The notes under the pieces: generated by a model
Database searches by the model: none
What the model was told of the DNA's origin: nothing
What the model saw: only the letters and a program-made list of their open reading frames with translations
Origin: Candidatus Magasanikbacteria bacterium RIFCSPHIGHO2_01_FULL_33_34
GTDB taxonomy: Bacteria; Patescibacteriota; Patescibacteriia; Magasanikbacterales; UBA922
Assembly (NCBI GenBank): GCA_001782825.1
Contig: MFPS01000006.1
Coordinates: 3,351 to 67,350, forward strand
Length of the DNA stretch: 64,000 bases
Reading direction: 5' to 3'
In this document: in pieces, positions 14,058 through 36,005 of the stretch
How the letters are laid out: each line of letters begins with the position of its first letter
How positions within the stretch are numbered: the first letter of the stretch is position 1
Program-made: the position numbers and the translations under genes

Positions 14058-14726
14058 TTACCTACCCCTAAACAATGTAAAAGCATAAATACCTTTTACT
14101 TTTTTATTTTCAAATAATTGAGAACATTCATGAATCGTAGCGCCGGTTGTATACACGTCATCAATCAATAATACAACCTTATTTGAAAAATAATATTTTT
14201 TATTTAACTCAAATGCATTTTTTATATTATCTTCTCTTTCAGATTTATTCAAACGTGCTTGATTTTTGGTATATCTGATTCTATATATTGCATCATTTAA
14301 AACTGCTTTATTTAATATTTTGCCCACAACTTGAGCTATCATTTCTGACTGATTGAAACCTCTTTCTGCATATTTGCGTGGATGCAAAGGTACTGGAATT
14401 ATAAAATCAATATTTTTAAAATACTCTAATCTTATCTCAAAATATTTTAAAATAATTGACTCAAACAAACCAAAAACTTCTTCGCTAAATTCATATTTAA
14501 AAATTTTAAATGCTTTACCCAATAATGATTCTTCATAATATTGTAATGCTGAAAATAAAACTTTTATATTAGACATTTTTTTGTCAAAAAATTCAGTAGA
14601 ATCTACTACTTCAAACCTATTTTTGCAACTCTCACAAACCCAACACCCCTCAACACCACATCCCAAACAAAAAATTGGGAATAAATAATCCTTTGCAACT
14701 TTTTTAATTTCTTTTAAAATCAACAT
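14058..14726 (-). CDS. comFC: ComF family protein (ComFC/GntX): double zinc ribbon plus phosphoribosyltransferase domain
   Basis: CLGCG...CWVCESC zinc ribbons, IPVPLHPRKYAERGFNQSE, and the PRTase motif VVLLIDDVYTTGATI. Confidence 0.8.
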   Translation of the reverse strand: MLILKEIKKVAKDYLFPIFCLGCGVEGCWVCESCKNRFEVVDSTEFFDKKMSNIKVLFSALQYYEESLLGKAFKIFKYEFSEEVFGLFESIILKYFEIRLEYFKNIDFIIPVPLHPRKYAERGFNQSEMIAQVVGKILNKAVLNDAIYRIRYTKNQARLNKSEREDNIKNAFELNKKYYFSNKVVLLIDDVYTTGATIHECSQLFENKKVKGIYAFTLFRGR

Positions 14727-14760
14727 AAATTAAATAACGAACTTTCGTTCGCTATTTTTA

Positions 14761-15369
14761 TTAATCCCATACAAATTTATCCACCAACCACTGATTTTCT
14801 ACTACCTCAACCAGATCAACATGACCTGTTTTGTATTCTATTTCTTCACTCCCTCGTTTTTTCTTGGTCACTTTTGCCTGCACTTTGATAACCGCCCTGA
14901 TATCAAACAATCTTTCCATTTCAGTTGAAAAAACTTCAGTAATAACCCCCTCATAATCCCGTGATTGTGGAATTATTTGAGTATTTATCCATTGTTCCAT
15001 TTTGTCAGTAGACATATCCAACGCATCTTGTATATGAGTATTATCATTTTGATTTGAATAACTATTAAATCTTTCAGTAAAAATACTGGCCAATTGCCTC
15101 AAATATTGCTCGGTTACATCTTGTTTTGGTACGCCATCGGCCAACAAATTAACATTGGTGTTATAGAATATTCCTGTATCAATATCTTGAAATGCTTCTC
15201 CATTTTTGCCAACGACAGGAAAAGTATTATCTTTTTGATCAATTATATTATTATTTGAGTCAATTACTTCAGGCTTATCTTTCAAAAAAAATAATAATAA
15301 AAATATTACTATAATAATCCCGGCAATTAAACCAGAAAATACGAATATTTTTTTTCTAAGTGTCATCAT
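14761..15369 (-). CDS. bitopic membrane protein; possible VirB8-like T4SS component (N-terminal TM plus an extracytoplasmic domain of about 170 aa)
   Basis: One TM segment (IFVFSGLIAGIIIVIFLLLFFL). It lies immediately downstream of the VirB4 ATPase in the same strand block. Confidence 0.4.
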   Translation of the reverse strand: MMTLRKKIFVFSGLIAGIIIVIFLLLFFLKDKPEVIDSNNNIIDQKDNTFPVVGKNGEAFQDIDTGIFYNTNVNLLADGVPKQDVTEQYLRQLASIFTERFNSYSNQNDNTHIQDALDMSTDKMEQWINTQIIPQSRDYEGVITEVFSTEMERLFDIRAVIKVQAKVTKKKRGSEEIEYKTGHVDLVEVVENQWLVDKFVWD

Positions 15370-15381
15370 ATAATTTTTTTA

Positions 15382-17253
15382 TTATTTCTGCTCCGCAGCC
15401 TCTTTTTCAAATTGTTTTTTGGCTTTTTCAATATCCAAAAGCTGTTTAGGATCAGAAGTGATTAATTGATCTTCAGTATAAGATGCGACAACTCTGATAG
15501 CCGCATGCTTAAGTCCAGCAAAAAATATTCCTTCACCCAAGGCACTTTCCAGCAACAAGAACTTCTCACCCTCTGTCAACATAAATACTTTTTGTATCAT
15601 ATCTATTGATGCTGGCGACTGTCGAAGTAATAATTGTAGAGCTGAATTTGTTACAATAGATTGTCCATAAGGTGAACGCAAAAAATCATTTACATCCTGA
15701 GTAATAGTTGTCACTCCCAAATAATATTTTCTACACCTCTTGACCAATGCATAAATAAACTTAGCACTATCTTCATGAGTCATCAACCACCATGCCTCAT
15801 CAATCACCAATATTCTTTTCTTTCTTTCAGATCGAACAACATTCCAAATATAATTTACCAAAGTATAAATCGCCATCGGACGCAACTCATCTTCCAAATC
15901 ACGAACACTAAATATAACCAACTGATTATTCATCTGCACAGTTGTTGGTGAATTAAATAATCCAGAAAAAGTACCATCAGTATATTTATGCAACAAGACT
16001 GCCAAATTCCCCGCCCCCTCCATACCTTCCAAAACATCTAACAAATCCTGCATTATCGGAGGCTCAATTGTTGCCAAATCACTACTTGACGAAATATCTT
16101 TCTTGGCAAAAGTTTCCAAAAGAGCTCTATCCATAATAGAATCTTCTTCAGTAGTCATATTGCCAAACATAATTCTAACTAAACCTTTGAGGGTAATAAC
16201 CGCGCTTCTAATAATATCTTCTGTAGAAACATCATAACCAACTGGACGTGGCAAATCAAATGGATTAACTTTACTTTCAGATGCTAATGAAATATTAATA
16301 TATGATCCACCAACCGCATCTGACATTTGTCTATATTCCATTTCAGGGTCAATGATAATCACGTCTGTCCCCATCATAAGACTGCGCAAAATTTCCAATT
16401 TTACAGCATAAGATTTTCCAGCCCCAGATGTAGCAAATACCACCATATTAGCATTTTGAAGAGAAAACCTGTCAAACAATATCAAACTATTATTATGCCT
16501 ATTTATTCCATACAATATTCCATTATCACTGCTAAGTTCTGAGGAAATAAATGGAAATGAAGATGCAATCGGGGACGAATTCATATTGAATGCTACGGAT
16601 ATTTCATCAATTGCCAGTGGTAATGTAGAATTAAATCCTTGTTCTGCTTGAAACAAAACTTTTTTTGTATTAATCAATTTGCCACCAAATATATTTTGTA
16701 CTTCATCAGTTATTCTATCCAAATCTTCAACACTCTTGGCATAAATAGTAACATAAAAAGCAAACTGAAAAAAATGTTCAGTGCCTTGAGTAAGACTATC
16801 TCGAAGCTGTTCAATATCCCGCAAAGCAGTCTCACGAACCGGATCGCGAGGAGCGCCTTTTTCTGTATCTGCTGTAATCTGAGCCTCAATTGTACCTACT
16901 TTTTTCTTCAATTGTTTCAAAATTATTGATGATTGAACTGGATAAAAAAACATTGATATATCCATACTTACATTCAAATTCAAAATAGGCGCGCTCCAGC
17001 CAACCGAAATAAATCTAGGATAAGAAACAACAAAAATTGTCCGCAAAAAAATATCTGATAATTGAATAAAATTTGGATCAACTTTAAAAGATGAAGGTGC
17101 AATTAAATCCTTGATAGTAACTGTGCCTTCGCGGTATACCCTTTCCTCTTCCAAAGTAATAAGCTCATCCTTTACATCTCTTTTCTTTATTTTACTTACT
17201 TTTTCTTTTTTACTTTCTTTTTTTAGGCTAATTGTAGGTTTGAATGCTGTCAT
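15382..17253 (-). CDS. type IV secretion system ATPase, VirB4/TraC/TrbE family
   Basis: Walker A FATSGAGKSYAV and Walker B ILVIDEAWW. The Gram-positive-type N-terminal region reads IAPSSFKV...NFIQLSDIFLRTIFVVSYPRFIS. Length is 623 aa. Confidence 0.9.
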   Translation of the reverse strand: MTAFKPTISLKKESKKEKVSKIKKRDVKDELITLEEERVYREGTVTIKDLIAPSSFKVDPNFIQLSDIFLRTIFVVSYPRFISVGWSAPILNLNVSMDISMFFYPVQSSIILKQLKKKVGTIEAQITADTEKGAPRDPVRETALRDIEQLRDSLTQGTEHFFQFAFYVTIYAKSVEDLDRITDEVQNIFGGKLINTKKVLFQAEQGFNSTLPLAIDEISVAFNMNSSPIASSFPFISSELSSDNGILYGINRHNNSLILFDRFSLQNANMVVFATSGAGKSYAVKLEILRSLMMGTDVIIIDPEMEYRQMSDAVGGSYINISLASESKVNPFDLPRPVGYDVSTEDIIRSAVITLKGLVRIMFGNMTTEEDSIMDRALLETFAKKDISSSSDLATIEPPIMQDLLDVLEGMEGAGNLAVLLHKYTDGTFSGLFNSPTTVQMNNQLVIFSVRDLEDELRPMAIYTLVNYIWNVVRSERKKRILVIDEAWWLMTHEDSAKFIYALVKRCRKYYLGVTTITQDVNDFLRSPYGQSIVTNSALQLLLRQSPASIDMIQKVFMLTEGEKFLLLESALGEGIFFAGLKHAAIRVVASYTEDQLITSDPKQLLDIEKAKKQFEKEAAEQK

Positions 17254-17267
17254 AATATATTTTAGAC

Positions 17268-17978
17268 TTATCTTTCAACTTGAATTTTACTTATATCTCC
17301 TACTGGTTCTGAAAAAGCAATATCTGGATTATATGTAGAATAATAAAGTTCAATCAATGCTTGAGTATCAAGCTGAATTACATTAAGCCCCATAGATTGT
17401 AAGCCTGATGAAACATTTGCCACGCGTAAATCTATATCTTTTTTTCTTCTTTGAAATAATTCTTCTTTGAGTTTTACTGAAATTACAGGCTTCAATACTT
17501 CCTTAAATCTAGAAAAAAATGATTTTTTAGCATTGGATAGTGGATCATAAGTCACAATAATAAAAAACTTCTTTGTCATTATATCCCCCAACTCTACATA
17601 CTCTTTTATAAATGACTTGTAATCAGCTATCTGTACCTTAAGGAGTTCATTTGTTTGTTGATTTTCTTGTGCAGTCAATTGATCGATATAATTTTGTATT
17701 TGCATTTTTCTAGACTGAACTACAATTTGTAAAGGAAAATCTATTGAATTTAAAAATGTTACATACGAAGAAATCAAAGCTATTTGCTCTTCTTCAGATT
17801 TCAAAGCAAAATTAATACTTGATGTCATCAAAATAACTCGAAGGGTTCCATCCTTCAATATGACTACCCCATCTTTGATTTCAGCTATATTAAGATGCGC
17901 TTGAGTTGGTGGAGCTTTTGGTTTTTTTCTTTTTTTATTTTTTTCTGACATATTATTCATCTGCTTTATAATATCCAC
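17268..17978 (-). CDS. T4SS-associated protein carrying a VirB4 N-terminal-domain-like motif; start uncertain (listed start is GTG, and an in-frame ATG at 17951 removes the overlap with the upstream gene)
   Basis: AEIKDGVVILKDGTLRVILMTSSINFALKSEEEQ resembles the conserved KDG..L motif at the N-terminus of VirB4/TrbE/CagE-family proteins. The N-terminus is basic (KKRKKPK). Confidence 0.5.
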   Translation of the reverse strand: MDIIKQMNNMSEKNKKRKKPKAPPTQAHLNIAEIKDGVVILKDGTLRVILMTSSINFALKSEEEQIALISSYVTFLNSIDFPLQIVVQSRKMQIQNYIDQLTAQENQQTNELLKVQIADYKSFIKEYVELGDIMTKKFFIIVTYDPLSNAKKSFFSRFKEVLKPVISVKLKEELFQRRKKDIDLRVANVSSGLQSMGLNVIQLDTQALIELYYSTYNPDIAFSEPVGDISKIQVER

Positions 17979-18381
17979 CTGTATTAACCACCAAAGAAAG
18001 GTCTCTTATATGTTGTCGCTTTACAGCTTTTTTGACTACTGCCTGCACTACTTCAATATCAGAATCAAGTTTTCTCAGCATATTTAGCTCTTTTGATTCA
18101 TAACTTTTATGCCATATCCTAAGACTAGGCTTTCTAGTAGTTTGAATGATATTTAACAAAAAATAATGAAATGTCTGACCATTTACTTTTACAAAAGCAA
18201 ACAACAAACTCAAAGAACCAACTACTGCAAGTACAAGTATGAAAGTTCCCAAATCACCAAATCTGTATCCCAAAAATATTATTATGCATCCAACTAGCAT
18301 AATTATAAATTGTCTAATAGTAACCGGACCTAAAATCTTGTCTTCTACATCAATAAATTGTGGAACAGTAAATTGTTGCAT
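17953..18381 (-). CDS. small 2-TM protein, PrgI/VirB3-like
   Basis: 142 aa with two adjacent TM helices (IRQFIIMLVGCIIIFLGY / TFILVLAVVGSLSLLFAFV), placed directly upstream of VirB4 as in PrgI-PrgJ arrangements. Confidence 0.5.
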   Translation of the reverse strand: MQQFTVPQFIDVEDKILGPVTIRQFIIMLVGCIIIFLGYRFGDLGTFILVLAVVGSLSLLFAFVKVNGQTFHYFLLNIIQTTRKPSLRIWHKSYESKELNMLRKLDSDIEVVQAVVKKAVKRQHIRDLSLVVNTGGYYKADE

Positions 18382-18382
18382 G

Positions 18383-19378
18383 CTAATATAATGTCTTACT
18401 TAATTTTAAAACTGCCTTAAATTCATCTAGTTTCATATCAGAATCAGCCATAGAACCAGACAAAACTTCAGCTACAGGTATTCTATTTTTTAATGATTTT
18501 GAAATTATATCTTGATATTGTTTGTATATAGGACTATTATACCATGCTTCCACACCTTCCATAAACATCAAATATGAGTCCTCTTGCAGATACTCAAATT
18601 TCTCTTTGACTTTTGATATTGAATCTTCAGCATTTGTACCCAAACGTCTAAAATCTTCCAATGTAAAATTAAGCATCTCATCAACTGGTCCAACACTTTG
18701 CTTTTCTACCTTTGGTGGTTTAACATCTTGTAATAATGGTTTTGTATTAAGCGGTTGCATCTCAGGTATTACTCCAGACATTTTATTATTTGTTATTATT
18801 ATACCTCTATCTACATCGAGATTTTTTGTAAATTTAGGTTTATCAAATTGAAAATTTTTATTATCACCAATCTTATTTTTATAGCCTGCTTCATTAACAA
18901 AAACATCTTTCACTGGAGTAGTGCGTGCCAATATATGTTCTCCTTCTCTTACTAATACTGGTTTTTCTTGATGAAACTCATCATCAAGCAATGATTTGTG
19001 ATCATCCTTTTCCCATCTATTTATACCTGACAATGTACTTTTATCTTTAATATTTTCAACAACATTTTGTAAACTTTTACTTACGCCATCTTTATTTCCA
19101 TAACCAGATTCTACCTTAGTAGATTTATTTTCACTTTCCTTTCTTATCTTTATGATATCATCTCTCAATTTTTGCCTTATTTCATCAGCCTTTCTTTTCA
19201 ATTCTTCCTCTTTTAACTGATTTTCTTTGTCTTCTTCTTTTTTAACTGTATTTACAACATTACTTGCACCCAAAATTTGCGTACTACTACTAGTCTTCAT
19301 TTTTTTGAATTCATCTAAAGACATGCGAACACTCATGCCATTGGCTTTTTTAACTAAAATTGTTGGTTCATTATTCAT
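18383..19378 (-). CDS. hypothetical Lys/Glu-rich protein in the T4SS-like block; preferred start ATG at 19378 (GGGGA RBS, 1 nt after the upstream stop); a longer ORF runs to 19417
   Basis: ORF with no recognised domain. The upstream stop at 19380-19382 followed by ATG at 19376-19378 indicates translational coupling. Confidence 0.5.
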   Translation of the reverse strand: MNNEPTILVKKANGMSVRMSLDEFKKMKTSSSTQILGASNVVNTVKKEEDKENQLKEEELKRKADEIRQKLRDDIIKIRKESENKSTKVESGYGNKDGVSKSLQNVVENIKDKSTLSGINRWEKDDHKSLLDDEFHQEKPVLVREGEHILARTTPVKDVFVNEAGYKNKIGDNKNFQFDKPKFTKNLDVDRGIIITNNKMSGVIPEMQPLNTKPLLQDVKPPKVEKQSVGPVDEMLNFTLEDFRRLGTNAEDSISKVKEKFEYLQEDSYLMFMEGVEAWYNSPIYKQYQDIISKSLKNRIPVAEVLSGSMADSDMKLDEFKAVLKLSKTLY

Positions 19379-19379
19379 A

Positions 19380-20516
19380 TTATTTTCCCCATTTAAAATT
19401 ACCCATACTTTCATCATAATGAACCATATCTTCTCCAGGGTAATTATTTTTATTCAAAAATTCGTCAAGATTTACAATTGCCAAAGCAATTTCAATATTC
19501 TGCAGACCATTATTACCCAATTCTGTTTGTAATAATTTTTCTAATTCTTGCCTAGCCTTAACCTTATTTTCAAATGACTGTAACCATGTCAAAAGTGAGC
19601 GAAGTGCTTCTGGTTTATTAATCCAGATTGCAAAATTAGATTTGTTTTCAATTAATCTTTCACTAAATGGAATAATCACACTTGTCTGATCTTCTTTTTC
19701 CATATCAACTTCATCCAATAAATTAAAATTATCAAAATAAAATTTTAATATATTTGCTCCAATTTCCTTTTTTGCTTTGTCAGATAATTTATCTGCAATA
19801 TTATATTTAGCATTTTCAAAATAACCCAATAAATAATCATCTATTTTAGATTCACCAACAAAAAAGGAAAATCTATCAACAAATTTTTTTGACCTCAAAG
19901 CAACATCCTTTTTTAAATTTTCATTATCCAACACAATATCATAAAATAAAGCTTTTTGTGTATCTTCAAATACTTTATATGAAGAAACATTTGCGCCATC
20001 ATCTTTTTTATTCAATAATAATCTCAAATCTGAAACTTTTAATTTTTCTCCAATATCATTAAAGGCTATTGGGTAATCAATAGACAACATTTTATTTTTA
20101 ATCTTTTTATACAAATCTTCTGCCTGATCATAATTTTTAGAAGCAAACATTTCCAACAGCTTATCATCTATATCAATAAAGGCTGATGTAGCAAAAGGCA
20201 AAGTATAACTAACAAAATCTACCAAAATTTCAGCTTTCATACCCACCAACAAATTCCAGCCGATATCCACAAATAATGGCCAAAATGTATGAGAATATTT
20301 CCTCATTATATTCTCATCAAAATTATTTTCATGAAAAAAATCATACATCGCGACAAAAGCAATTTTTGGACTTAACTTTCCTGTACTTGAACTCAAATAA
20401 TAAGAATCTCGAATTTTTTTCATTTCATCTAGAGTTACCTCATGAGGTATCAAAATATCAAGATTTTCATCAGTAATAATATTCTGTTGATTGTCTACAA
20501 CCTTGTCTTCATTCAT
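19380..20516 (-). CDS. hypothetical protein (378 aa) in the T4SS-like block
   Basis: ORF with uniform coding bias and no recognisable motifs. Its start lies 20 bp downstream of the VirB6-like gene. Confidence 0.5.
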   Translation of the reverse strand: MNEDKVVDNQQNIITDENLDILIPHEVTLDEMKKIRDSYYLSSSTGKLSPKIAFVAMYDFFHENNFDENIMRKYSHTFWPLFVDIGWNLLVGMKAEILVDFVSYTLPFATSAFIDIDDKLLEMFASKNYDQAEDLYKKIKNKMLSIDYPIAFNDIGEKLKVSDLRLLLNKKDDGANVSSYKVFEDTQKALFYDIVLDNENLKKDVALRSKKFVDRFSFFVGESKIDDYLLGYFENAKYNIADKLSDKAKKEIGANILKFYFDNFNLLDEVDMEKEDQTSVIIPFSERLIENKSNFAIWINKPEALRSLLTWLQSFENKVKARQELEKLLQTELGNNGLQNIEIALAIVNLDEFLNKNNYPGEDMVHYDESMGNFKWGK

Positions 20517-20535
20517 ATAAAATATAAACTATATT

Positions 20536-23500
20536 TTAATTATTCTTTTTTCCAGAATTAGGTGAACCTGGTTTTTCCTCTGATTTTGCTTTCAATTCTT
20601 CTACATTTATTTCTATTACCACATCATCTGAAACAATTGTTCTTTTACCAACTGTTTGACCATTTAATTTTTCATTGGCAAATTCAGCTAATTCTACTAT
20701 GCTCGCTTTTTGCACATCCTCACCCTTTATTTTAGCCACACCCAGTTGTTCAAGTCCAGTTCGCCATGCTTCAATCGCTTGCCTTCTACCTATAGTATCT
20801 TTTGCATCTAATGCATTATACCTATTGGCAAACTGTTGCATCCAGAGTGCAAGGGTAGTTTTCATTTCATCTGCTACTTGAAATTCTTTTCCATCATAAG
20901 CGACATCTGATGTTGATCCAGTTGTAAGTCCATTAAATATAGTTTTTTCCATTTGCGCTATTTTTTCAGCTGTCATTTTACTAGCAATTGCCATTAATTC
21001 TTCATAGGCTTGTTCATGTTTTAATCTAACAGCTCTACCACCCTGTAAAACACTATATGCTCTACCGTCTTTTATGCCATATCTACTAAATGAAGGTCTG
21101 GCCATCATGTTTTCTTGATATTCTCGCCATGTACTACCATCTTGATATGTACCTGTACCCAAAACTTTACCTTTACCAGCTCCAGCTTTCATATTATTGG
21201 TCATACCAAATGCACGCCTACCAAACTCATCAACACCTTCAGAAACCTGCATATATGATTCAGTTGATGTTAAACTTCTTGATGCAGAATTTAAACCTTG
21301 ACCAAGCATTCTAAACAATCTAGAATCTTTTTCTTTAAACCTTTGATGCATTTCATCTTCTACTTCTTTAAATCCTGCATCATCTTTTACATCATCCCAT
21401 TTTCTACCAGTAATAATCGCTGCAATTACTCTACCAATATTTTCTGAAGTATTGACTTTTACATCAGCAAATGAACTATCCAAATCTGCTGATAAACCTG
21501 GTATAACACCAGAATATTCTTTAGCAAAAACAGCCATATCTCTACTTAAAGATTGAGACAATGATTCTCTTGCTTTTTTATCTGCAACCGTAAATCTATC
21601 ATTTGGATCTTTTTTATCTTCTTTTTCATTTAATTTCTGAAGTTGCTTATATCTTTTTTGTATATCCCTTTCTAATTGCTCATACTCACGTTTATTATCC
21701 TCAAACTCTTGAAAAGCCTGTTTTTCTTCCCACATCCTCAATCTATCGGTTGATTTGCCTTCTATACCTCTAAAAACATCCGCCAATCTAGCCTTTTCTT
21801 TTTCATATTCAGTAATAAATTTTCTACCCCTAGTACCAGCTTTATATGATTCATACTCACCGCCCAACATAGCCACATTATCATATACACCATCTCTTTC
21901 ATAAGCTTCTGATCTTTCTTTGTCATCTATAGAGTCAACAATATATTTATCTACAACTTTTTCCTTAGTATCTGGGAAACTTTCCATAATTTTATGTACT
22001 TTCTGTTCTTTTTCTGTTACTGCTGTAGAATTTTTTGCCCAATCAATACCATACTTTTCTATCATCTCTTTATCAATTTTACTTATTTTTTCCTTTCTTA
22101 CTTTCTCAAGTATTTCATCTGCTTGGTTTGATGTTTTTATTTCACTTGTCTCTTTTTTATTTTTATTTATTTTTTCCTTTGTCTCAGCTCTTTTCATTTG
22201 CTCAGCAATTTTAGCATTTTTATCTATAACATCTAAACTTTCCCATGTACCATCACCCTCTTTATCATTCATAGCTTTCCTCAATCCACTCTCTATATCA
22301 TCCATAAGTTCTGCCATCAACTGATCAGCTTTAATTTGTCGCGCATAATCTATATAAGCTTCTTCCTGATCTGCTGATGTCATCCCTGCTTTCTTTTTAC
22401 TTACCAATTTTTTATTAGAAGCTACCATTTTATCTTCAACTTCTTTTTGTTCTAATTTTAAATAACTATGTTTAAACATGCCCTGAATTTCATCCATTCT
22501 GGCTTTTGCAGAACCCCTCTCTTCTTCTGCATACATACCTCCTAAAATTGTTGAAATCAAACGAGTACCAGAAGCTGCTTCTCTATCAATTTCTCTCTTT
22601 TTGGCTTTATACTCTTTGAGAGCCTCCTGTTTTGGTGCTGCTGCAGTAGACATACTTGACAATGAGCTTCTCATACCTGCCAAAGCTTCTTCTCTTTCCT
22701 TGTCAGTTCTAGCTGTTGTAAATGAAGCCAATGAACTTTGCAAACCTAATTCTGGTGTTTGTTCTATTTTTTCAATCATCTTACGAGCCTCAATACCCTT
22801 ACCACTTCTAACCAAATCTTGTACTTTTTTATATTTACGAATAATTTTTGGACTAACTGTTTTGTCTTTTTCCATTTTGTCAATTGCAGACGCTATTCTT
22901 TCTTCTTCATAATTTTCTTTTTCCATTTTTGCACGCATTATACCTTCTGATTCCAATCCTTCAATTATACTATTTGCTGTCATAAGATCATCATTATTAA
23001 CAGCCTTTTCTAATTCTTTGTACTTAGTATAATTTATATCTTTCTTTGGTTCTAATTCTTGAACAGCAGAAATAGCAACTTCTTTTGACTCTTCTTTATC
23101 TAAAGTAGCACCTATATCTAACAAAGCTTTATCTGCTTCATCCTTATCTGCATTAAAAATACTTTTTTGTAAATTTTCTCTTAATTTCAATTTACCAGCA
23201 TCTTTTGGTAAACTTATTTTTGATAACGCACTATTAGCTTCTGCCCAATCACCACTTTCTATTGCTTTTACTACCTTGTCATACTCATCACTCTCTCTAG
23301 CTTTAATTGCATTACGAATAGCTTCGCGTATAGGAGCAGTATCTTCTGCCTCAACACCATGGTCACGTTCTAATTCATCCAAACTTTTTTCAGCTACACT
23401 AAATTTACCCGCTTTTACAAGATCAACTACATTAGTTACGGCTTCTCTTTTGCTATCTTGTGTAGCATCTCCAATAATATCCAAAATTTGTTTTTTATCA

Positions 23501-25449: not shown

Positions 25450-25458
25450 TTTTTGATA

Positions 25459-28400: not shown

Positions 28401-31400
28401 TTATAATAAAAGCCCCAAGATTATCCATTTCCATTCTACGTACTGTCTTCCAAGGTATGCCGGCATAAAATTGACCAGGGTTAGGAAAAGTACCTGTTAT
28501 TCCACTATCATCTGGAGCCATCGGTCTCATATAAAAACCTAATACTGAATCTATGTCATTATCATTTAAATTTTCTTCTCGATAATTACACATTAATTTA
28601 TTAAAAGTTGAAAAGGTTACTGTTCCGCCACCAGAATATCCAAAAGGTGTTTGCATACTTAGTAAAGTAATCCTATTACTAGTACTTACTGGACCAAAAC
28701 CATAACCATAATTATAATTTTGACTTGGGAATGTCTGACAAGTAAAGTGATGCAAAGATCTTCCATTAACAGGCACTACTGGATCTGGAAAATAACTATA
28801 AAGCACTTGACTACTAAAATGAGAAGTGGTTTCATTTAATTCATCATCATTAAAATCATTATAATCATATCCAACAGATGGATCAAGAATATAATCCGCA
28901 TCAAACAAACCACCACCTGATACACCAGCGCAATATAACTCACCACTGGCAAAATTTGGATTAGCATCTAATTGTGGATAATAACCAGCTTCAATATGCA
29001 AACTATTTGGGTCAATATTGGTAGCTGATGTTTGAATCGGTAACCATGTCAAACAAGCATATTCTTGATCCGCCTCATATCTAGCTTTACCATTAATTGG
29101 TCTACTAAAATCAGGTTCCAGACAAAAACCCTTTACTCCCAATCTTGTTTGTACCTGTCTCAATTTACTACATTCACCAGCAGATACAATTTCACCTCCT
29201 TCACGAACAATACAATCTAGATTTGTTTGACAAGGTTGACCATCTTTTTCACCAGTAGTACAAATACCAATTGGAATTGAAGGATTTACATATGATGTAG
29301 AAGTTGTAATAGGATAATAATCTACAAAATTACCATAATCATATTTGTTATATTCACAAGAACAATCTATTGAACCTTGACAAAGATTAGCCTCGCTAAA
29401 AAAGTTATTATAGATAGAATATTCTACTCTTGATTTTCCATTCAATTGACTACCTGCGCTTGTATTGCGTTTAATTCTACTATTGGCAGTATACGCAGCA
29501 TCCTCTTCATCAACTGGTTCTGAAGCTATATTCAAATATGGGAACGGACTTCCTTCTTCAGAAAAAATCTTACAACTTGAATCATTCAATCCATCTCTAA
29601 TTGCATTATGAATAATCAATCTCTCTTCATCCTCGTCTACAGCACCAGAAAGATTTATGTTTGGAAATGATGATCCATCAATTTTATTAACACACTTGCC
29701 CACAAAACACCTACCAGCTAAACCTGGACCACATGGATTACCATCTGTATCCCCAAATTCTGAATCACAATTGTTTGGTAACTCTCCTATATTTGGTAAT
29801 AATGCACCCAAATATTGATTTTCTGGTTCAGTTGAAAAAGTAAAATAACCAAATGTAAGTATTTGATGCTTGTTTAATAAAGAATATCCAGAATATTCAA
29901 AACCATACCATGAAATATCCCTACCTGTATATCTTTCTTCATCCAAAAATGTTTCCCCATATTGTGGTTGCACAAATGTCAAACACTCATCATCCCGCCC
30001 ACCAATTTTTAATTTTTCACAAGCTTTATACTCCGAACACAAAACTTGCTTTTCGCCTTTTTCATCTCTACTAATTAATTTATTACTACAAGTTAACCAC
30101 TCAGAACAAGCCCTATCTCTGTTAACCTTGAGTAGAAAATTGGTATCATTTGCCACTCCAGGATCAGTAGAGATTTGTGGATTTACAAAACCATATTTTG
30201 GATTTGTTTCATCACTAGCTTCATAAGTTAATGAAGCATTATAAAATTTGTTTGGTTGATCAGTCTTGTCAAACAAAACACAACCTTCTTTTAAGCTAAC
30301 CTGACCGTTACATTCACTTGTCCTCTCTGTAAGCTTATCATCAAATATCCTATAATATGGTTGACCATTTGGATTAGCATTTGATGTGTCTACCGTATCA
30401 ACTAATTCTGTACATAAATTATATTTATTTTGGCAAGAACCAACAAAACCATTATACCTATCAGAATCATTGGACCAAATACTATATATTTCATCTTTGA
30501 GATAATCATCATAACAAGGAATAGACCCAATATCTGAACAATCATTGTCCGCACAATCACTATTACTTCGACAATAATTAGACGGTTGAGATTGGCATCT
30601 ACCAAAACCTTCTATATACCATCCATCAAAACTAGCTGTATTTTCTTTGTAAGTACAAATTGAGTGACCTGTCTCTACTGGATCTCTAAAATAATAAGTA
30701 TTTGGACCGGTAGTATATTCACCACAACCAATTTTGTCTTGAGTACACAAAATTTCTCCATATCTTTCTGGATTGTCCTTTATATAAATATCACTATATT
30801 CATAACTAAGTGTAGTGGTACTTGGCATTATTTGATCTTGTAGTCCCATCAAAGTACAACCAACATCTCCTTCTGGACAATGATATTCTGTTCTATTGGT
30901 CAAAAATATTGGCGCGCCAGATTCTGGTGGAATATAAACACTAGACAAATCAATACTTATATTAATTTCACCAAAATCAAATGCCAACAAATCATTCAAA
31001 TCTCTATATTCATCATCATTAAAATCATTAGCTGTGCCATTATCATCAATTGGTAAATTCATAACTGGTATATAACAACTAGGTTCACCCTGTGGCACAA
31101 AACAACTTCCCGTAGTACCAAAATAATTTATAGAACATTCCACTCCAGATTCGCCATCATCATGAGAACAAACCAAATTATATATCTTTGGCAATCTAGC
31201 ATCTTCACCAGTCAACGTATTGTTGGTATCAAACAAAGGCTGACATCCCACTGCTTCTTCTCTACAAAGAGAAGCAAAACCTGTCAAATAATAAGTATTA
31301 CTTCTTTCATCTGTATATTCACTACAACCAAGCGCAAAACCAGGCAATAGCCCTGCTGGATTTTCACCGCTAGCAAAACAAGTTGATGGAGCATTGGCCA

Positions 31401-34400
31401 TTATAGATTCACCTTCTTCAATAGTCCCATTGCCATTCACATCATATCCTATTTCTTGTTGCCAAGAATCTTTGATCAAATATATACTATCTTCAATTTG
31501 TGATAATTGGATATTGTCCAAGAAATAAGGCGCAGCCGTTCCAACATTGTGGAAACTCAATACCACTGGAGACAATCCATCTCCAGTAAATTGTACTGGA
31601 CCAAGCCTATATTCTCTCCAATTATTACCAATTGAAATTGAGCTCAAAGCATCAGCGTTCAAAACCTCATGAGTAAATATTCCATAAGTTTCTGAGGCTG
31701 GATCAGCTAAATTATAATTATAAGCGCCATCAGAATTAGTATCCTGCATAAATCGGATTGAAATATCTTGAGGTGCTCCTCTGGCCCAGAAACTTAATTC
31801 AAACCAACCATTTGATTGTAGAGATACAAGTTCTTCTGTGGTTCCCAATTCAATCTCTCTAATCAAATATTCTTGACCAGCGCTATTACTGATTCGCAAA
31901 GAACTCTGGCCTCTTTGTAATGATTCAGATGAAATTGAAATGTTGCTTCCACTTGGCGCTAAAAGAAACCAACCATCTGTAGTCGTTGCAGATTCAAAAC
32001 CATCAGCAATAATATTTAATCTCAAGTTATTTCCGGTATTTCCAGTATAAGCGCGACATTCATTGGCCACTGCTGGACATCTAGATGATTCACTAGATAG
32101 TGATTGATAAACACAAGTATTACCATCAACCTGTCCACCGGCGTAACATCTATTACATTCTGAAACTCCATCACCATTTGAGTCCCCCCAAACACCATTA
32201 CCTTGATTAGCACAAGTAGTTCCATCTGCAATATCATTATCAACAAAAAGTCGTGGTTCAGTTTTTCTGAGTCTCCTGCACTGATCTGAAATAATAACCG
32301 TGTCCCCCATCATTCTATAATATTCATTACCAGCATTATCATAAAACTGCCTACAATCTGCTGCTGCAGAATTAGGATCAAATACATTAATAATTGCCAA
32401 AGCATAATTTGTTCTATTACATACTTCAAAATTATTTTGAATTGCCTCGCGAGTATTGTCTGAATAAGCAGGTGAACCAGGAGCAAAATCAACTGCAGAT
32501 GAACCATCTGGAACACCATTGTTATCTGAATCCCAATCAAAACCTGCTAAACCAGCTACATAAGCAGATTCACCCGCATCCATTTGTTTAAGCCTATGAT
32601 TTCTCAATACAAAACCTTCACTATGAGAGCCTTCCCATGAGAAAAATACTTTCTCTGGCACTGTATTAGGCTTTTCACAAAATCTAATATAATTGTAATA
32701 TTCTAATCTTTCTCCACCCTCAGATGATTCTTCTACATTGGTAAATTCATCACAACCAACATGTTGAGCAGAACATACCGTACCGAGTGACGGCACAAAA
32801 TGCAATGGAAATTCTTCATCTTCAAAACTTGATTCTCTTTGTTTAAATGTCTCATAACCAGCACACTCAGCCGGACAACCATTTTGCTCCTTGACCACAG
32901 CTGAAACAGTACTGCCAGTCCGTGCTGATGTATACAAACTACAACCAGCTTCTAGAGGCGCACAAACTTGCGCAAACTTTCCACATTCACTTGGTACATT
33001 CATATTCAAAATTTCAGACTCAGTCTGTGGCCAATTAATAATTGTTTCTGAACCCGCTCCAGTATTGGTATCATAACAACCCAAATAATCAGGTGCTACT
33101 TTGAGATGAATAATATCTGATGTATTTCTGATATATTCATTGTTTTTTAATGTAAACAATCCTGTATTAAAATTCCTTTGTACTCCATAAAATACTGTAC
33201 AACCTTCTGACGATGCTGAACAAGTTTCTACATTTCTATTGAAGTATATTGAACCATTTCTACCAACTGTTTTGAGACTACCCACACTATTGATATCAGC
33301 ATATGTTATCCATTCATTAGATAATTTTTCTGTTGAGTAACCCTGACAACCAACAGACTCTGGGGTGCACTGCGCAAAATCTATTGTTCTAGCTAAATAT
33401 GATGCTTTGTCACCTGATGATGTGTTTGTATATGATGTACAAGTACTATATTGAGCCGGACACTCTTGTCCATCTAACTGCCAAATATTTTTTTCCTTTG
33501 TACAATATCCCCAAGCAATACAAGTTCCATCAGCACTTTCTGATATACAAGTTTGCAAATCCATACATTCCTCTGCTCTAAATGGAGTAGAATTATCAAC
33601 TAAATTTGGCCCAAATCCTTCTGTACCACATCTAGATTGTGGCACTTTAATAATCCAGTTTGGATTAATCAAATGACATGCTTCGTGATTTGCATCAGGT
33701 TCACCATTTTCATTGCAATCATCAAAACCATTAACAACTCTATCTAATGTCCAAGGTTTATCAGGATTAGACTTCAAAGCGGCCAATTCAAAACCGATTG
33801 GTAAAATTAAGGCTTTTCTTAATTTTTGGATATTAGAATAACAATAAGCTTTGATATAGCAATCACGAGCTTCACTTGAATTTAATGCATGTGTTGGTGG
33901 AATCAATTGCCAATTGCCATGCAATAAATTGGCATCAATCGCTTCTCTAATTGTCAAAAATACTCCATCATTACTGCTACCTCTATTAATGGCTTGTTCA
34001 AAACCTGAATCAATCACTCTATTTGAGACCAAATCACCCACAATATCATAATTATCAACCTGATTTATAGACGGCGCAGTAATAAAATTAAAGGCTCTTT
34101 GGGCAGCTTTTTTGTTGTCTTGCAAAGTTGATGCAAAAAATGAAGCAATCCCACCTGAAGCACCCCCACCACCAACTTTGTCAGGATCAGGTGTATCTGG
34201 AAGTAATCCAGTCATTATTTTCTTTAACAATTGTTGACTAAGAGTATTAATAAAAATATTAGCGGCCATCAATGGTAAACTTCTAAGTTCAGAGCCATAA
34301 ATTCCGGCCATTTGTGTAGCATTCAATTTTTGCTGTTCAGCGGCTGACAAAGACTCTGCTTCTTTTCTGATTTGAGAAGCAGGAGTGAGAATCTTGCCTG

Positions 34401-35139
34401 AAATTGGACTGACAACATCTTTGAATCCTTGATTGGCTATTCGCTCTATATCAGCGGCTGCTCCTGCCCTACCTACCGCATTATCAATTTGCGCAATTGA
34501 TTCCATGGCTACACCAAAACCAGTTTCCTTAAAACTAAAACTTCCAGAAAAAACTTCTGAGGCAAAACTACTTCCACCTTCTCCATATTTTTCTTCAAGA
34601 GCAGCGATACTAAAATTGTCTTTCAATTGTTGCCATTCACATTTTGGCTGTGGGCCAATTGGAACTCCATCAGGACCTAATTTTGGATATAAATTACTCA
34701 ATCCTAATTTCAAATTGATATTTACTTGTGGACTTGGAATTTTACATAAATTTAATCCGAAAGGTTCTCCCAAAGAACCAACCAACTCACCCGCAACTGA
34801 ACCAGTCACATCACTCCAATATTGACCGGCAGATGTATCAAATGCCAATGGACTATTGCCAAAATCTCCAGTAGCTATAGCAGTCGCTGTATCAAAGGCT
34901 ACTTTGCGAACCATAAATGAAAGACTATTCATAACCGCACCCATTGCAGCCCCAGTTAACTGATTAAAAATAGTATCTTTAGCTTCTTTAACTTTCAATA
35001 TTCCATATAACCCCGGATCACTGACAACCCCACCAACTTGGGCTTTAACAGGATTTGCAAAAAGAATCATCCCAAAAACATCCATTACAAAATATGTTGC
35101 TACCAAGAATATTATAAATGATGATTTTCTTTTTTGCAT
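25459..35139 (-). CDS. giant secreted Cys/Asn/Gly/Asp/Tyr-rich surface protein (3226 aa); putative adhesin-like component
   Basis: One uninterrupted 9.68-kb ORF. The N-terminal signal peptide is MQKRKSSFIIFLVATYFVMDVFGMILFANPVKA. There are no further TM segments, and Cys residues are numerous (spaced CxxC/CxnC throughout). Confidence 0.8.
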   Translation of the reverse strand: MQKRKSSFIIFLVATYFVMDVFGMILFANPVKAQVGGVVSDPGLYGILKVKEAKDTIFNQLTGAAMGAVMNSLSFMVRKVAFDTATAIATGDFGNSPLAFDTSAGQYWSDVTGSVAGELVGSLGEPFGLNLCKIPSPQVNINLKLGLSNLYPKLGPDGVPIGPQPKCEWQQLKDNFSIAALEEKYGEGGSSFASEVFSGSFSFKETGFGVAMESIAQIDNAVGRAGAAADIERIANQGFKDVVSPISGKILTPASQIRKEAESLSAAEQQKLNATQMAGIYGSELRSLPLMAANIFINTLSQQLLKKIMTGLLPDTPDPDKVGGGGASGGIASFFASTLQDNKKAAQRAFNFITAPSINQVDNYDIVGDLVSNRVIDSGFEQAINRGSSNDGVFLTIREAIDANLLHGNWQLIPPTHALNSSEARDCYIKAYCYSNIQKLRKALILPIGFELAALKSNPDKPWTLDRVVNGFDDCNENGEPDANHEACHLINPNWIIKVPQSRCGTEGFGPNLVDNSTPFRAEECMDLQTCISESADGTCIAWGYCTKEKNIWQLDGQECPAQYSTCTSYTNTSSGDKASYLARTIDFAQCTPESVGCQGYSTEKLSNEWITYADINSVGSLKTVGRNGSIYFNRNVETCSASSEGCTVFYGVQRNFNTGLFTLKNNEYIRNTSDIIHLKVAPDYLGCYDTNTGAGSETIINWPQTESEILNMNVPSECGKFAQVCAPLEAGCSLYTSARTGSTVSAVVKEQNGCPAECAGYETFKQRESSFEDEEFPLHFVPSLGTVCSAQHVGCDEFTNVEESSEGGERLEYYNYIRFCEKPNTVPEKVFFSWEGSHSEGFVLRNHRLKQMDAGESAYVAGLAGFDWDSDNNGVPDGSSAVDFAPGSPAYSDNTREAIQNNFEVCNRTNYALAIINVFDPNSAAADCRQFYDNAGNEYYRMMGDTVIISDQCRRLRKTEPRLFVDNDIADGTTCANQGNGVWGDSNGDGVSECNRCYAGGQVDGNTCVYQSLSSESSRCPAVANECRAYTGNTGNNLRLNIIADGFESATTTDGWFLLAPSGSNISISSESLQRGQSSLRISNSAGQEYLIREIELGTTEELVSLQSNGWFELSFWARGAPQDISIRFMQDTNSDGAYNYNLADPASETYGIFTHEVLNADALSSISIGNNWREYRLGPVQFTGDGLSPVVLSFHNVGTAAPYFLDNIQLSQIEDSIYLIKDSWQQEIGYDVNGNGTIEEGESIMANAPSTCFASGENPAGLLPGFALGCSEYTDERSNTYYLTGFASLCREEAVGCQPLFDTNNTLTGEDARLPKIYNLVCSHDDGESGVECSINYFGTTGSCFVPQGEPSCYIPVMNLPIDDNGTANDFNDDEYRDLNDLLAFDFGEINISIDLSSVYIPPESGAPIFLTNRTEYHCPEGDVGCTLMGLQDQIMPSTTTLSYEYSDIYIKDNPERYGEILCTQDKIGCGEYTTGPNTYYFRDPVETGHSICTYKENTASFDGWYIEGFGRCQSQPSNYCRSNSDCADNDCSDIGSIPCYDDYLKDEIYSIWSNDSDRYNGFVGSCQNKYNLCTELVDTVDTSNANPNGQPYYRIFDDKLTERTSECNGQVSLKEGCVLFDKTDQPNKFYNASLTYEASDETNPKYGFVNPQISTDPGVANDTNFLLKVNRDRACSEWLTCSNKLISRDEKGEKQVLCSEYKACEKLKIGGRDDECLTFVQPQYGETFLDEERYTGRDISWYGFEYSGYSLLNKHQILTFGYFTFSTEPENQYLGALLPNIGELPNNCDSEFGDTDGNPCGPGLAGRCFVGKCVNKIDGSSFPNINLSGAVDEDEERLIIHNAIRDGLNDSSCKIFSEEGSPFPYLNIASEPVDEEDAAYTANSRIKRNTSAGSQLNGKSRVEYSIYNNFFSEANLCQGSIDCSCEYNKYDYGNFVDYYPITTSTSYVNPSIPIGICTTGEKDGQPCQTNLDCIVREGGEIVSAGECSKLRQVQTRLGVKGFCLEPDFSRPINGKARYEADQEYACLTWLPIQTSATNIDPNSLHIEAGYYPQLDANPNFASGELYCAGVSGGGLFDADYILDPSVGYDYNDFNDDELNETTSHFSSQVLYSYFPDPVVPVNGRSLHHFTCQTFPSQNYNYGYGFGPVSTSNRITLLSMQTPFGYSGGGTVTFSTFNKLMCNYREENLNDNDIDSVLGFYMRPMAPDDSGITGTFPNPGQFYAGIPWKTVRRMEMDNLGAFIIKLFTSYAWNRIGNNAIPLRVEYNPNKDLDLNGTTAPWRFAPWVGGNPGVDIYEIQNGGFDRRTHPVDLDTDDDGVVNDTSEYGGLYNFNTADNFINEYSVNDFYFIPTVYKGTLRGAVPRTILDLGDPNMSNWTERWDNEVLRLPIKALASNDGNINGSIVPFSGVVIRKDSDYYTDSDYFNNSGYGYYIVNFSLRNKTSIYYGDPMTFSKTDPVSFSQNHLLMWRYVLDRNNSDQSSLFYPDEPDVVKKYILVFFANQTSGALKYDSSDPFGYRTVAPMFMNGILSEGQPEPFVPQSAVNDPFQTDCQRGYVGGGYSNDNEENAHYNPWWAVSVNFGENGEFLGYTTKWCNGYTADNVLTHNENASLGSGIGFAVFADLATQCREIVQVYDRSAFGTARTINKAWTNRVWSLARNIDGTPFAHPFARDATIDQESFGTDDTSSYPLVSRNNILAPYGSLGLSADFLSDLDNTTLLNFSFQDPFVDGIPYSCNLSYADALVRSVPLNLYIRSCPFAPYESTIYRNTFAFRQTVGQEYNGSRVVSTIGRMQVYDPVYYLMPWYAHDALFELFVKQFRVVNLDEAGANPGLQYVDAVLPLADLDRSNTIYGAQTIIRRPAHQPCEFCEPIPEYSFTEYLTQPAVYSLNPVFCSEDDDVNEGADCTVAEYNSFSVGLATGELKDYNNDGQISSVERSAASDIASVDTYTANVKFFAHADDNRMPIRKVSVDWGDGSTITNENKLGLYKNSKPFCANGGNGDEVVPVCKMNFQGKHIPSSITCEEDSDCPENFNVVEPLSIIEAGDDPLLTNPDCMSTQELLALGGTDLETYAMPRFGNAPRACTIEPFEFEHAYRCTATMIDAHITFGSLDSDVQSIILNEVTNYNLSVDIADQINLSSNDVDYTLCQFKPRVQVLDNWGYCNGWCPDDPANPEAGGPFCYSGDVATECAWRDVGSVPPILGVVPTPWTTYRGNIIIIPSEEF

Positions 35140-35195
35140 ACACTTTTAGTAAATATTATTTTATCGCTTCCAATAACAGTTCTTACACAACTTTT

Positions 35196-35849
35196 TTATA
35201 AATTTATATCTTTGACCAATTTTAACAATTCTTCATCTGTTACATTTTTTAATTGTTCTTCAGTTATTTTGCCAGTTGATAATAATATCTGTCTCAACAA
35301 TTCTGGACTATTCATCAATGTTTCTAATTCAATACTCAATTGATCAGGGTCTGGTAGTTGTTCATCAGGGATCTGTTCTGACAAAGAAACTGATTCAGCC
35401 AACAAATCCAAAAAATCTGCAGCCCCACTTTCTACCGAAACAGGAGATTCAACTGCAATTTGTTCTTCCGGAGTATTGGTATCCAACAATATTTCACAAT
35501 CAGTCCCCTCAGCGCACAATGGATTAGTTCCATTTTCAATTTCAATGTTGTCATCAATCCCATCTGAATCAGTATCTGGTAAATAGGGACTAGTATTATA
35601 AAACTCCAGCTCTTCAAAATCAGTCAAACTATCATTGTCGGTATCCATCTGCTGTAACCTAGTTGAATCATCAATAAAAGCTTGTGAACTAAGATAATTA
35701 ATTGGCCTAATTACAAATGGATTATAAATAGTATTTCTCATTTGCAATGCGCCCATACTCAATGTCAAAATTCCGAATACCATTAACAAGACAAAACCTA
35801 CTTTTTGCCCAGAGCTAAGTTTTCTTGTTTGGTAATTTTCAGATTCCAT
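35196..35849 (-). CDS. acidic bitopic membrane protein with calcium-binding DxDxDGxxD (thrombospondin-type-3 / dockerin-like) motifs
   Basis: TM segment VGFVLLMVFGILTLSMGALQM, then DTDNDSLTDFEE and DTDSDGIDDNIE motifs, and a strongly acidic C-terminal half. Confidence 0.6.
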   Translation of the reverse strand: MESENYQTRKLSSGQKVGFVLLMVFGILTLSMGALQMRNTIYNPFVIRPINYLSSQAFIDDSTRLQQMDTDNDSLTDFEELEFYNTSPYLPDTDSDGIDDNIEIENGTNPLCAEGTDCEILLDTNTPEEQIAVESPVSVESGAADFLDLLAESVSLSEQIPDEQLPDPDQLSIELETLMNSPELLRQILLSTGKITEEQLKNVTDEELLKLVKDINL

Positions 35850-35956
35850 GTTTATCTAATTTAGACCTGAACCATTATCACTTTAGATTGTTCTTTATTA
35901 TTATACCAAAAAATACTAAAACAAAATAGAGATAATCGTGGATAAGTGTTTGCATA

Positions 35957-35988: not shown

Positions 35989-36005
35989 GAAGTAATCCTA
36001 AAAAT

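Follow-up and report, generated by a model that had tools for sequence, protein, structure and literature searches.

We analyzed a 64-kb stretch of DNA (the window) from the ~1.17-Mb genome of a Candidatus Magasanikbacteria bacterium, a member of the Patescibacteria, or candidate phyla radiation (CPR), that presumably belongs to class ABY1 of GTDB. Our subject is a block of ten minus-strand genes in this window that includes the core of a type IV secretion system (T4SS). The ten open reading frames (ORFs) claimed for the block in an initial annotation were all present in the ORF listing with the same coordinates and sizes (Table 1). The family assignments VirB4, VirB4 N-terminal domain, PrgI, and ComF also held in Pfam and NCBIfam profile searches; the VirB6/TrbL (E value of 0.006) and TSP3 matches were weak.

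TABLE 1. Features of the T4SS block and its spacers, with positions in the window
Feature	Positions	Strand	Length or basis
comFC-type gene	14058-14726	-	222 aa
Terminator-like hairpin between the VirB8-like gene and comF	14732-14757	-	Short, GC-poor, GAAA loop, in 34-nt spacer
VirB8-like gene	14761-15369	-	202 aa
VirB4 ATPase gene	15382-17253	-	623 aa
TrsD-like gene	17268-17978	-	236 aa
PrgI/VirB3-like gene	17953-18381	-	142 aa
Gene for 344-aa protein of no known family	18383-19417	-	344 aa
Gene for 378-aa protein of no known family	19380-20516	-	378 aa
Extended VirB6-like gene	20536-25449	-	1637 aa
Giant secreted/surface protein gene	25459-35139	-	3226 aa
Giant, Cys-rich conserved C-terminal domain (residues ~2900-3226)	25462-26439	-	Homologue alignment
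Giant, hypervariable region (residues ~2100-2900)	26440-28842	-	Identity of 0.08-0.23 to 24 homologues, 30-55% gaps
Giant, CBM_4_9-like (CBM4/9/22) beta-sandwich module (residues ~1043-1210)	31510-32013	-	Alignment to homologue P0177
TSP3 membrane protein gene	35196-35849	-	217 aa
Intergenic region 5' of the block	35850-36005	-	156 nt; likely promoter

The VirB4 ATPase matched PF19044 at 5e-29 and NF045971 (the conju_CD1110 family) at 1e-103, with 348 bits against a cutoff of 325. Its Walker A (ATSGAGKS) and Walker B (ILVIDE) motifs can both be read intact in the translation. The protein is 100% identical to proteins in Candidatus Magasanikbacteria metagenome-assembled genomes (MAGs) from the Rifle aquifer (RIFCSP series) and shares 69-90% identity with hundreds of others in Magasanikbacteria, Uhrbacteria, and unclassified Patescibacteria; nearly all of its closest homologues are in Patescibacteria or Magasanikbacteria MAGs, although numerous TPA records bear the generic title "uncultured Gammaproteobacteria." The TrsD-like ORF covers positions 11-137 of NF045971, and the ATPase ORF covers the same model from position 157 onward. 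Because the two ORFs tile one VirB4 model, VirB4 is split into an N-domain encoded as a separate TrsD-like ORF and an ATPase ORF, as described for the Patescibacteria clade. The TrsD-like ORF also covers positions 88-282 of NF045975 and matched NF041427 (TrsD) at 3.6e-6, below the cutoff, and its counterparts in relatives carry the annotation PF26593 (TraC-like). The PrgI/VirB3-like protein matched PF12666 at 7e-10 (39.7 bits versus a gathering score of 27), has two transmembrane (TM) helices, and is 40-82% identical across related loci.

The VirB6-like protein matched TrbL weakly (E values of 0.002-0.006, below the gathering score). TrbL was also the sole Pfam family to recur among 39 VirB6-like orthologues, being found in 11 of them with a best E value of 6e-6. 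A profile of the TM domain found no match among PDB sequences. This conserved polytopic domain of ~7 TMs occupies residues 1-400 (DNA 24250-25449). It is followed by an extension (residues 400-1637) that is 35-48% D/E/K/R and variable in length and sequence, and homologues span 600-1890 aa. The extension is probably cytoplasmic, because a basic stretch comes after the last TM. A VirB6-like protein with an extension of ~1200 aa fits the "extended VirB6" class reviewed in PMC12857230.

Sequence searches with the VirB8-like protein were empty, whether against Pfam, NCBIfam, or, with a 33-sequence profile, all PDB sequences; the informative search was by fold. A structure prediction built from a 10-sequence alignment depicts a bitopic protein with a TM at residues 4-30, a disordered linker, and a predicted NTF2-like domain of three helices and four long strands. 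The initial annotation had offered this protein as a VirB8-like candidate, and the NTF2/VirB8 fold of the model agrees with that. It is therefore supported as the VirB8-fold subunit of the ABY1 arrangement, a modest addition to what is known.

Two soluble proteins are encoded between VirB6 and PrgI. The 378-aa protein is acidic, belongs to no recognized family, had one weak tblastn match in relatives, and is unconserved outside the closest of them; this position in the locus evolves rapidly. The conserved part of the 344-aa protein is confined to a C-terminal domain of ~120 aa (residues 225-344, DNA 18386-18745). This domain is encoded immediately upstream of prgI in 75 related loci and has no relative in Pfam or PDB.

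Synteny was examined by tblastn with the ten window proteins in 80 VirB4-anchored loci, one genome per species. The initial annotation had held that its reading would fall if relatives did not share the gene order. Where the contig permits it to be read, the order VirB6(TM)-[variable]-344-aa C-domain-PrgI-TrsD-VirB4-VirB8-like-ComF is collinear in nearly every locus, and the TrsD-like ORF is conserved throughout, with the split VirB4/TrsD arrangement in all relatives. In the genome that carries locus L083, identities to the window proteins were 84% for VirB4, 63% for TrsD and for PrgI, 62% for release factor RF1, 56% for a DUF4015 protein, 51% for the VirB6 TM domain and for Sua5, 49% for KsgA, 41% for the TSP3 partner, and 35% for the giant. 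Judged by these identities (84% versus 62%), VirB4 is under stronger constraint than the universal translation factor RF1. Shared strand and close spacing were rejected as stand-alone evidence because the codirectional run includes unrelated housekeeping genes: it goes on beyond the block to position 41110 through ksgA, the DUF4015 gene, sua5, and prfA. The block is more than a chance arrangement because the synteny of its core is conserved in ~80 genomes. By homology or fold, VirB4/TrsD, PrgI, the VirB6-like protein, and the VirB8-fold protein make up an inner-membrane translocon of minimal, monoderm type that descends from the conjugation machinery of MPF_FATA.

The giant has a pI of 4.4, an N-terminal signal or anchor at residues 8-26 with a conserved PxxAQ, and 100 Cys residues, dozens of which are invariant across 25-43 homologues. 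It matched no Pfam family. Its 87 homologues of 2400-3800 aa are all unnamed, and some carry Pfam CBM_4_9. A phmmer search with residues 1-660 against 1.84 billion cluster representatives (clusters at 50% identity) found 1241 clusters at an E value of ≤1e-3 and 803 at ≤1e-30; lengths among the 150 listed fall mostly within 2500-3300 aa. Residues 1-2070 form a conserved body that is kept in all homologues, and the hypervariable region and the Cys-rich C-terminal domain follow it. The consensus of the latter domain contains ...FFAxADxNxMPIRxVxVDWGDG... and ends ...DNWGWCNG...IIVxP. A PKD-like "VDWGDG" in it was spotted by eye, has no statistical support, and is the subject of no claim here. The CBM_4_9-like module was located by alignment to the part of P0177 that passes the CBM_4_9 (PF02018) gathering score, and more distant homologues have an additional CBM_4_9 inserted near residue 650. 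In the AlphaFold 2 model, the N-terminal 350 residues are predicted, at low confidence, to be long helices. A Foldseek search with the model of residues 1-1150 returned nothing from PDB at an E value of ≤0.001. A diversity-generating retroelement was considered as the source of the hypervariable region and rejected for the window, which has neither a reverse transcriptase nor a template/variable repeat pair. An identical protein is on public record as P0121 (2888 aa, "hypothetical protein A3F93_00100"), but its annotated start corresponds to residue 339 of our ORF, so that the signal peptide and the conserved N-terminal region are missing from it.

The partner encoded next to the giant is acidic (pI 4.05), has a TM at residues 17-35, and matched the TSP3 profile weakly. 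An alignment of eight sequences revealed two invariant repeats of the Ca-binding type (DTDxDG..D..E ... DTDSDG..D..E), a conserved Cys pair (NPxC..G..C), and a C-terminal helix motif, LRxxLLxxG...(S/T)DEELLKL. The genes ksgA, TSP3, and giant are adjacent and in invariant order in 7/7 giant-anchored contexts, in which the identity of the giant falls to 27%. In six of these seven (giant identity of 27-35%), the VirB6-like, PrgI, TraC-like, and VirB4 genes follow the giant on the same strand within 10 kb. When the survey was anchored on VirB4 instead, the C terminus of the giant was encoded upstream of virB6 in 15 of the 38 loci with at least 1.2 kb of sequence there.

We found no association of the giant or the TSP3 protein with a T4SS in the literature, and no adhesins were detected for the Patescibacteria T4SS (PMC12102498). 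The pair beside the T4SS looks unreported and would be a modest addition. The gene neighborhood is suggestive of a giant-T4SS linkage, and we lean slightly toward the pair being a functional accessory of the T4SS. Several observations favor this: only 9 nt separate the giant stop from the virB6 start in the window, the proximity persists at very low sequence identity, the extracellular, hypervariable, and predicted glycan-binding architecture is as expected for host recognition, and there are no pilins or other adhesins in the window.

Alternatively, the giant and its TSP3 partner might be an independent adhesin or envelope module that is not part of the T4SS and sits in an ancestrally conserved neighborhood (prfA-sua5-ksgA-...-T4SS). 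We treat this as a serious possibility that falls short of an even chance. The link to the T4SS is by gene neighborhood only, and inherited synteny could explain the proximity because the conserved order also holds prfA, sua5, and ksgA, housekeeping genes functionally unrelated to a T4SS. Toxin-antitoxin, transposase, kinase, tRNA synthetase, or opposite-strand lipoprotein genes lie between the giant and virB6 in many relatives. Because other genes intervene in this way, giant and virB6 do not form an obligate operon, and the giant was in the upstream flank of only 15/38 loci. The T4SS cluster of Southlakia epibionticum has no such giant (PMC10633639), and CPR genomes commonly encode large, Cys-rich extracellular proteins whether or not a T4SS is present (PMC4736985). 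Points against an independent module are the 9-nt junction, a promoter-like region upstream of the TSP3 gene, and T4SS genes ≤10 kb downstream on the same strand in 6/7 contexts at 27-35% giant identity. Furthermore, T4SSs of the Gram-positive type depend on a surface adhesin, and for the Patescibacteria clade no such adhesin has come to light.

The spacer between giant and virB6 is an insertion hot spot in relatives. A RelB/ParE-YafQ toxin-antitoxin pair occupies it in L086 (19241-19807), a Ser/Thr kinase and a Y1 transposase in L084 (21214-23762), and a small lipoprotein or secreted protein gene on the opposite strand in L004 (2662-3165, minus strand) and L035 (2629-3153, minus strand). Another relative, L087, encodes a 396-aa protein ~8 kb from the giant (1129-2319, minus strand) in which a VirB2-like pilin domain (a signal and two TMs; weak match to PF18895) is joined to ~260 aa of Cys-rich C-terminal sequence; the window encodes no homologue of this protein.

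We read the block as a chromosomal, vertically inherited T4SS of the Patescibacteria clade, in the ABY1 arrangement and with the giant and TSP3 protein as a docking part, that moves macromolecules and does not conjugate. We put the probability of this reading at roughly 0.6. A VirB4 hexamer tethered by PrgI would power the assembly of, and translocation through, a channel of VirB6 and VirB8 that spans the single membrane and the wall. The giant/TSP3 module would be exported by Sec and stabilized by disulfides and calcium. The giant, with its putative sugar-binding module and hypervariable segment, and its TSP3 partner would be the extracellular docking and host-recognition part, which would bind host envelope glycans and hold the channel against the envelope of the host cell. 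Macromolecules could then pass between host and epibiont, with no conjugation of DNA. More tentatively, the Ca-binding anchor and the CBM-bearing giant might, in ABY1, functionally take the place of two components of the T4SS in Saccharimonadia, its VirB2 pilin array and its lysozyme, and dock the channel on host wall glycans, with residues 2100-2900 setting host range. If so, the giant family (at least 1241 clusters) would be an unrecognized, lineage-wide T4SS accessory and the first adhesin candidate for the Patescibacteria T4SS.

Besides the doubts about the giant raised above, some points weigh against this reading. The VirB6 assignment is weak at the sequence level. The models of the VirB8-like protein and the giant are of moderate confidence (pLDDT scores of about 59 and 59.9, respectively). 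Other parts of the ~1.17-Mb genome could hold genes for a type IV coupling protein (T4CP), a relaxase, or a pilin. Finally, activity, transport direction, and cargo are all predicted from genes alone.

As for direction and cargo, import of host nucleic acid or other macromolecules is the leading option, although at somewhat under even odds in our estimate. We give it this weight because of nucleotide auxotrophy, the recurrent ComFC/recombination-gene neighborhood in ABY1, and a 2026 preprint on RNA feeding. Export of effector proteins is less likely, and some other cargo or direction is about as likely as export. In the export scenario the T4SS core would be as described, protein effectors (or toxins or lysins) would be delivered into or onto the host, and the giant would be an adhesin or itself a secreted substrate. 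Wang et al. favor protein export or "an alternative capacity" for the Southlakia system because its coupling protein and relaxase are missing (PMC10633639), and effector systems without a T4CP do exist, namely, Ptl and Brucella VirB (PMC12857230). In Southlakia, ComFC is dispensable while the T4SS is essential, and deletion of comEC there had no effect on viability. However, no candidate effector or immunity genes were recognized in the window, and T4SSs that secrete effectors normally depend on a T4CP or on a periplasmic step that involves Sec. The giant would need no T4SS for its export because it bears its own Sec-type signal. We consider export unlikely, if worth keeping in mind.

An ordinary conjugative system, either an integrative and conjugative element (ICE) or a chromosomal transfer apparatus, with its relaxase, T4CP, and oriT outside the window, is highly improbable in our judgment. 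Many Patescibacteria genomes do encode T4CP homologues, as a rule at a distance from virB4, and a few genomes have relaxases (PMC12102498); the window is also only 64 kb of ~1.17 Mb. Even so, the initial annotation recognized no relaxase, T4CP, pilin, or peptidoglycan hydrolase in the block, and family scans extended this to all ORFs of the window, in which they found no relaxase, T4CP (VirD4/TcpA), integrase, transposase, pilin, or peptidoglycan hydrolase. Relaxase families were absent from every window ORF of at least 100 aa. None of the ten block genes encodes a VirB1/PrgK-type peptidoglycan hydrolase. A VirB2-type pilin was sought in the window by Pfam match, as a small two-TM ORF in the intergenic gaps, and as a homologue of the L087 pilin-domain protein, and was found by none of these routes. 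There are no repeat pairs in the window that could bound an element, and three nearby tRNA-Ser genes are without such repeats. A relaxase, T4CP, and oriT nearby would, according to the initial annotation, have pointed to an ordinary ICE; the flanks hold housekeeping genes, in an order common to distant relatives. Every other window ORF with an assigned family is housekeeping or envelope related (SMC, ClpP, VanW, Hsp20, SDR, KsgA, Sua5, RF1, NusA, YidC, GroES/EL, Wzy, ABC transporters, subtilase, and RlmN-like). By its context, the block is not part of a mobile element within the window, and the ICE reading was rejected for lack of a relaxase, T4CP, integrase, or element boundaries in 64 kb. 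In addition, VirB4 evolves more slowly than RF1 and tracks lineage, interclass transfer is rare, and relaxases are present in only 103/3035 genomes (PMC12102498).

The remaining idea, that the block is a decaying, nonfunctional remnant of an ancient conjugative element, has in its favor the missing hydrolase, pilin, T4CP, and relaxase and the VirB4 in two ORFs, but it has a negligible chance and is effectively refuted by the conservation data, because VirB4 (69-90% identical across 80 genomes) is more conserved than RF1, the VirB4/TrsD split is conserved in all relatives, all ORFs (including one of 9.7 kb) and the Walker motifs are intact, and homologous genes are essential in Southlakia (PMC10633639).

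We also considered the gene at the distal end of the block. ComFC-type proteins act in DNA uptake of transformable bacteria. The one encoded here has an N-terminal 4-Cys motif, CLGCGVEGCWVCESC, and a phosphoribosyltransferase motif, VVLLIDDVYTTGAT (DDVYTTGAT), both read in the translation. It matched TIGR00201 over its full length at 1.2e-30 (107 bits versus a cutoff of 233) and GntX at 1.7e-24, below the curated cutoff; matches to Pfam phosphoribosyltransferase families were weak. Of the 69 loci that gave a ComF match, most have the ComF gene immediately after the one for the VirB8-like protein. A ComFC gene downstream of the T4SS is compatible with the handling of incoming single-stranded DNA. 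However, the ComFC gene (K02242) beside the Southlakia T4SS is nonessential while the T4SS core is essential (PMC10633639). In this window and also in Southlakia (SEML1_0020/0021), a distant species in the Saccharimonadia, an Hsp20 gene (10282-10782 in the window) and a ComFC-type gene are found just past the T4SS, which suggests ancient synteny rather than a class-specific functional fusion. Because this shared neighborhood looks ancient and ComFC is dispensable in Southlakia, ComFC is probably a loosely linked neighbor and not a core subunit. The initial annotation had treated the ten genes as one machine. The conserved order of the core bears this out in part, but the claim is stronger than the evidence allows for the unconserved 378-aa gene, for the giant and VirB6, between which unrelated genes are inserted in relatives, and for ComFC.

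The block was also said to have tight junctions. It is compact overall, with distances of 34, 12, 14, -26, 1, -38, 19, 9, and 56 nt from the ComFC end onward, but the largest gaps are 34 and 56 nt and not the 10 nt claimed. The 38-nt overlap of the 344-aa and 378-aa genes hinges on the choice of start codon. The spacer 5' of the block likely holds its promoter: an extended -10 element, TGGTATAAT, can be read directly ~50 nt before the ATG of the TSP3 gene (hexamer at 35900-35905). Four tandem TTTRTATG units are present at 35953-35986 in the same spacer, which is preceded by a terminator-like hairpin at the ksgA end (36007-36023). The hairpin in the spacer ahead of comF may dampen transcription that reads through from the VirB8-like gene. 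From the promoter-like region and this hairpin, a transcription unit that starts at ~35900, and is perhaps attenuated before comF, appears likely.

Other features of the window lie outside the block. A putative glycoside hydrolase of the DUF4015/GHL type with an N-terminal TM or signal is encoded at 36850-38103 (minus strand), 1 kb upstream of the block beyond ksgA, and is conserved there in the relatives L083 and L086 as well. Possibly it acts on the wall or on a polysaccharide and stands in for the missing VirB1, but nothing ties its gene to the T4SS. Between it and sua5 is the gene for a 308-aa protein (38335-39261, minus strand) whose signal (LLGGC) resembles that of a lipoprotein and whose acidic linker is rich in Pro, Asp, and Gly; it belongs to no family and had no tblastn match in the seven giant-anchored loci. 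A 911-aa soluble protein (46184-48919, plus strand) and a 315-aa protein (50053-51000, plus strand), both encoded among housekeeping genes, have no Pfam family. A tRNA-Ser with anticodon ACT (A34; loop TTACTAA) is at 10964-11051 (plus strand); among bacteria, Ser tRNAs with an A34 that looks unmodified are unusual. Another, tRNA-Ser(GCT), is 440 nt away at 11492-11579, with a small cupin gene in between. Two copies of a 51-nt element, 90% identical, lie upstream of clpP (6868-6918, with clpP at 7003) and groES (52360-52410, with groES at 52801). The element contains the palindrome GATGTC-N6-GACATC, differs from the CIRCE consensus, and is a candidate heat-shock or proteostasis operator shared by the two.

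The Patescibacteria T4SS is essential to the epibiotic life of the one species tested. This locus offers VirB8-fold support for the ABY1 arrangement and, in a VirB4 more conserved than RF1, a sign of extreme purifying selection. A CBM-bearing giant family with an obligate TSP3 partner beside the T4SS is a candidate for the missing adhesin or host specificity determinant. If the giant-T4SS link is true, the sequence of a single hypervariable gene segment could reveal the host range of ABY1 bacteria that are not in culture.

The locus is an instance of a system already described and not of a new kind. Quinonero-Coronel et al. (2025) reported a monophyletic, chromosomal Patescibacteria VirB4 clade nested in MPF_FATA, with TrsD, PrgI/VirB3, and VirB6 near virB4, ksgA frequently close by, and, almost only in ABY1, VirB8/PrgL-like matches (PMC12102498). 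In ABY1 the T4SS is colocalized with comF, recG, and radA, and repurposing for import of DNA or other macromolecules was proposed (PMC12102498). The present locus has the same VirB4 with a separate TrsD-like ORF, PrgI/VirB3, VirB6-like protein, and VirB8-like protein, and like those systems it is chromosomal, without a relaxase, near ksgA, and colocalized with comF. Unlike them, it has no VirB2-like pilin or VirB1-like gene nearby, and recG and radA are absent from the window. The giant, its TSP3 partner, and the conserved domain encoded upstream of prgI are unmentioned in that account. Our analysis thus agrees with the initial annotation on a dedicated, nonconjugative T4SS-like machine of an ultrasmall episymbiont, which the missing mobility genes and the conserved order support, but this rederives what is known because PMC12102498 and PMC10633639 already describe the system.

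Wang et al. (2023) showed that Southlakia cannot grow as an epibiont without the homologous cluster SEML1_0006-0019 (PMC10633639). Both loci encode VirB4, PrgI, an extended TrbL/VirB6-like protein (~1088 aa in Southlakia), and an NTF2-like protein (similar to TraM of pIP501), and neither cluster has a relaxase or T4CP. In contrast to the present locus, the Southlakia cluster has six essential VirB2-like pilins and a lysozyme/peptidase, and it encodes no protein of ~3000 aa.

The locus also resembles Gram-positive MPF_FATA systems (pCF10 Prg/Pcf, pIP501 Tra, and the CTn2 CD1110 family); the best curated match of its VirB4 was the CD1110 model, NF045971. TrsD occurs in the pGO1 subclass of these systems. 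The order VirB6-VirB3-VirB4-VirB8-like is paralleled by prgH-prgI-prgJ-(prgK)-prgL of pCF10. Unlike such systems, the locus has no relaxase, T4CP, PrgK/TraG-type hydrolase, PrgB-type adhesin, or SSB; it is chromosomal and vertically inherited, and its VirB6 has the ~1200-aa extension. By analogy, it may be likened to Helicobacter pylori ComB and archaeal Ced, which are also T4SS derived, without a relaxase, and proposed importers. However, no ComB- or CedA-like matches were found, the CedB and CedD models scored 43 bits versus a cutoff of 700 and 20.8 versus 600, respectively, and there is no ComEC in the window.

Lastly, the giant resembles, by description only, the large Cys-rich extracellular proteins of CPR bacteria (Peribacteria, PMC4736985) in size class, signal peptide, Cys content, strain- or lineage-level variability, and a proposed role in attachment. 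The Peribacteria proteins are unlinked to a T4SS, whereas the giant family has an obligate TSP3 partner gene and a defined architecture, in which a conserved body of 2000 aa that includes the CBM_4_9-like module is followed by a hypervariable segment and then by a C terminus that is again conserved.

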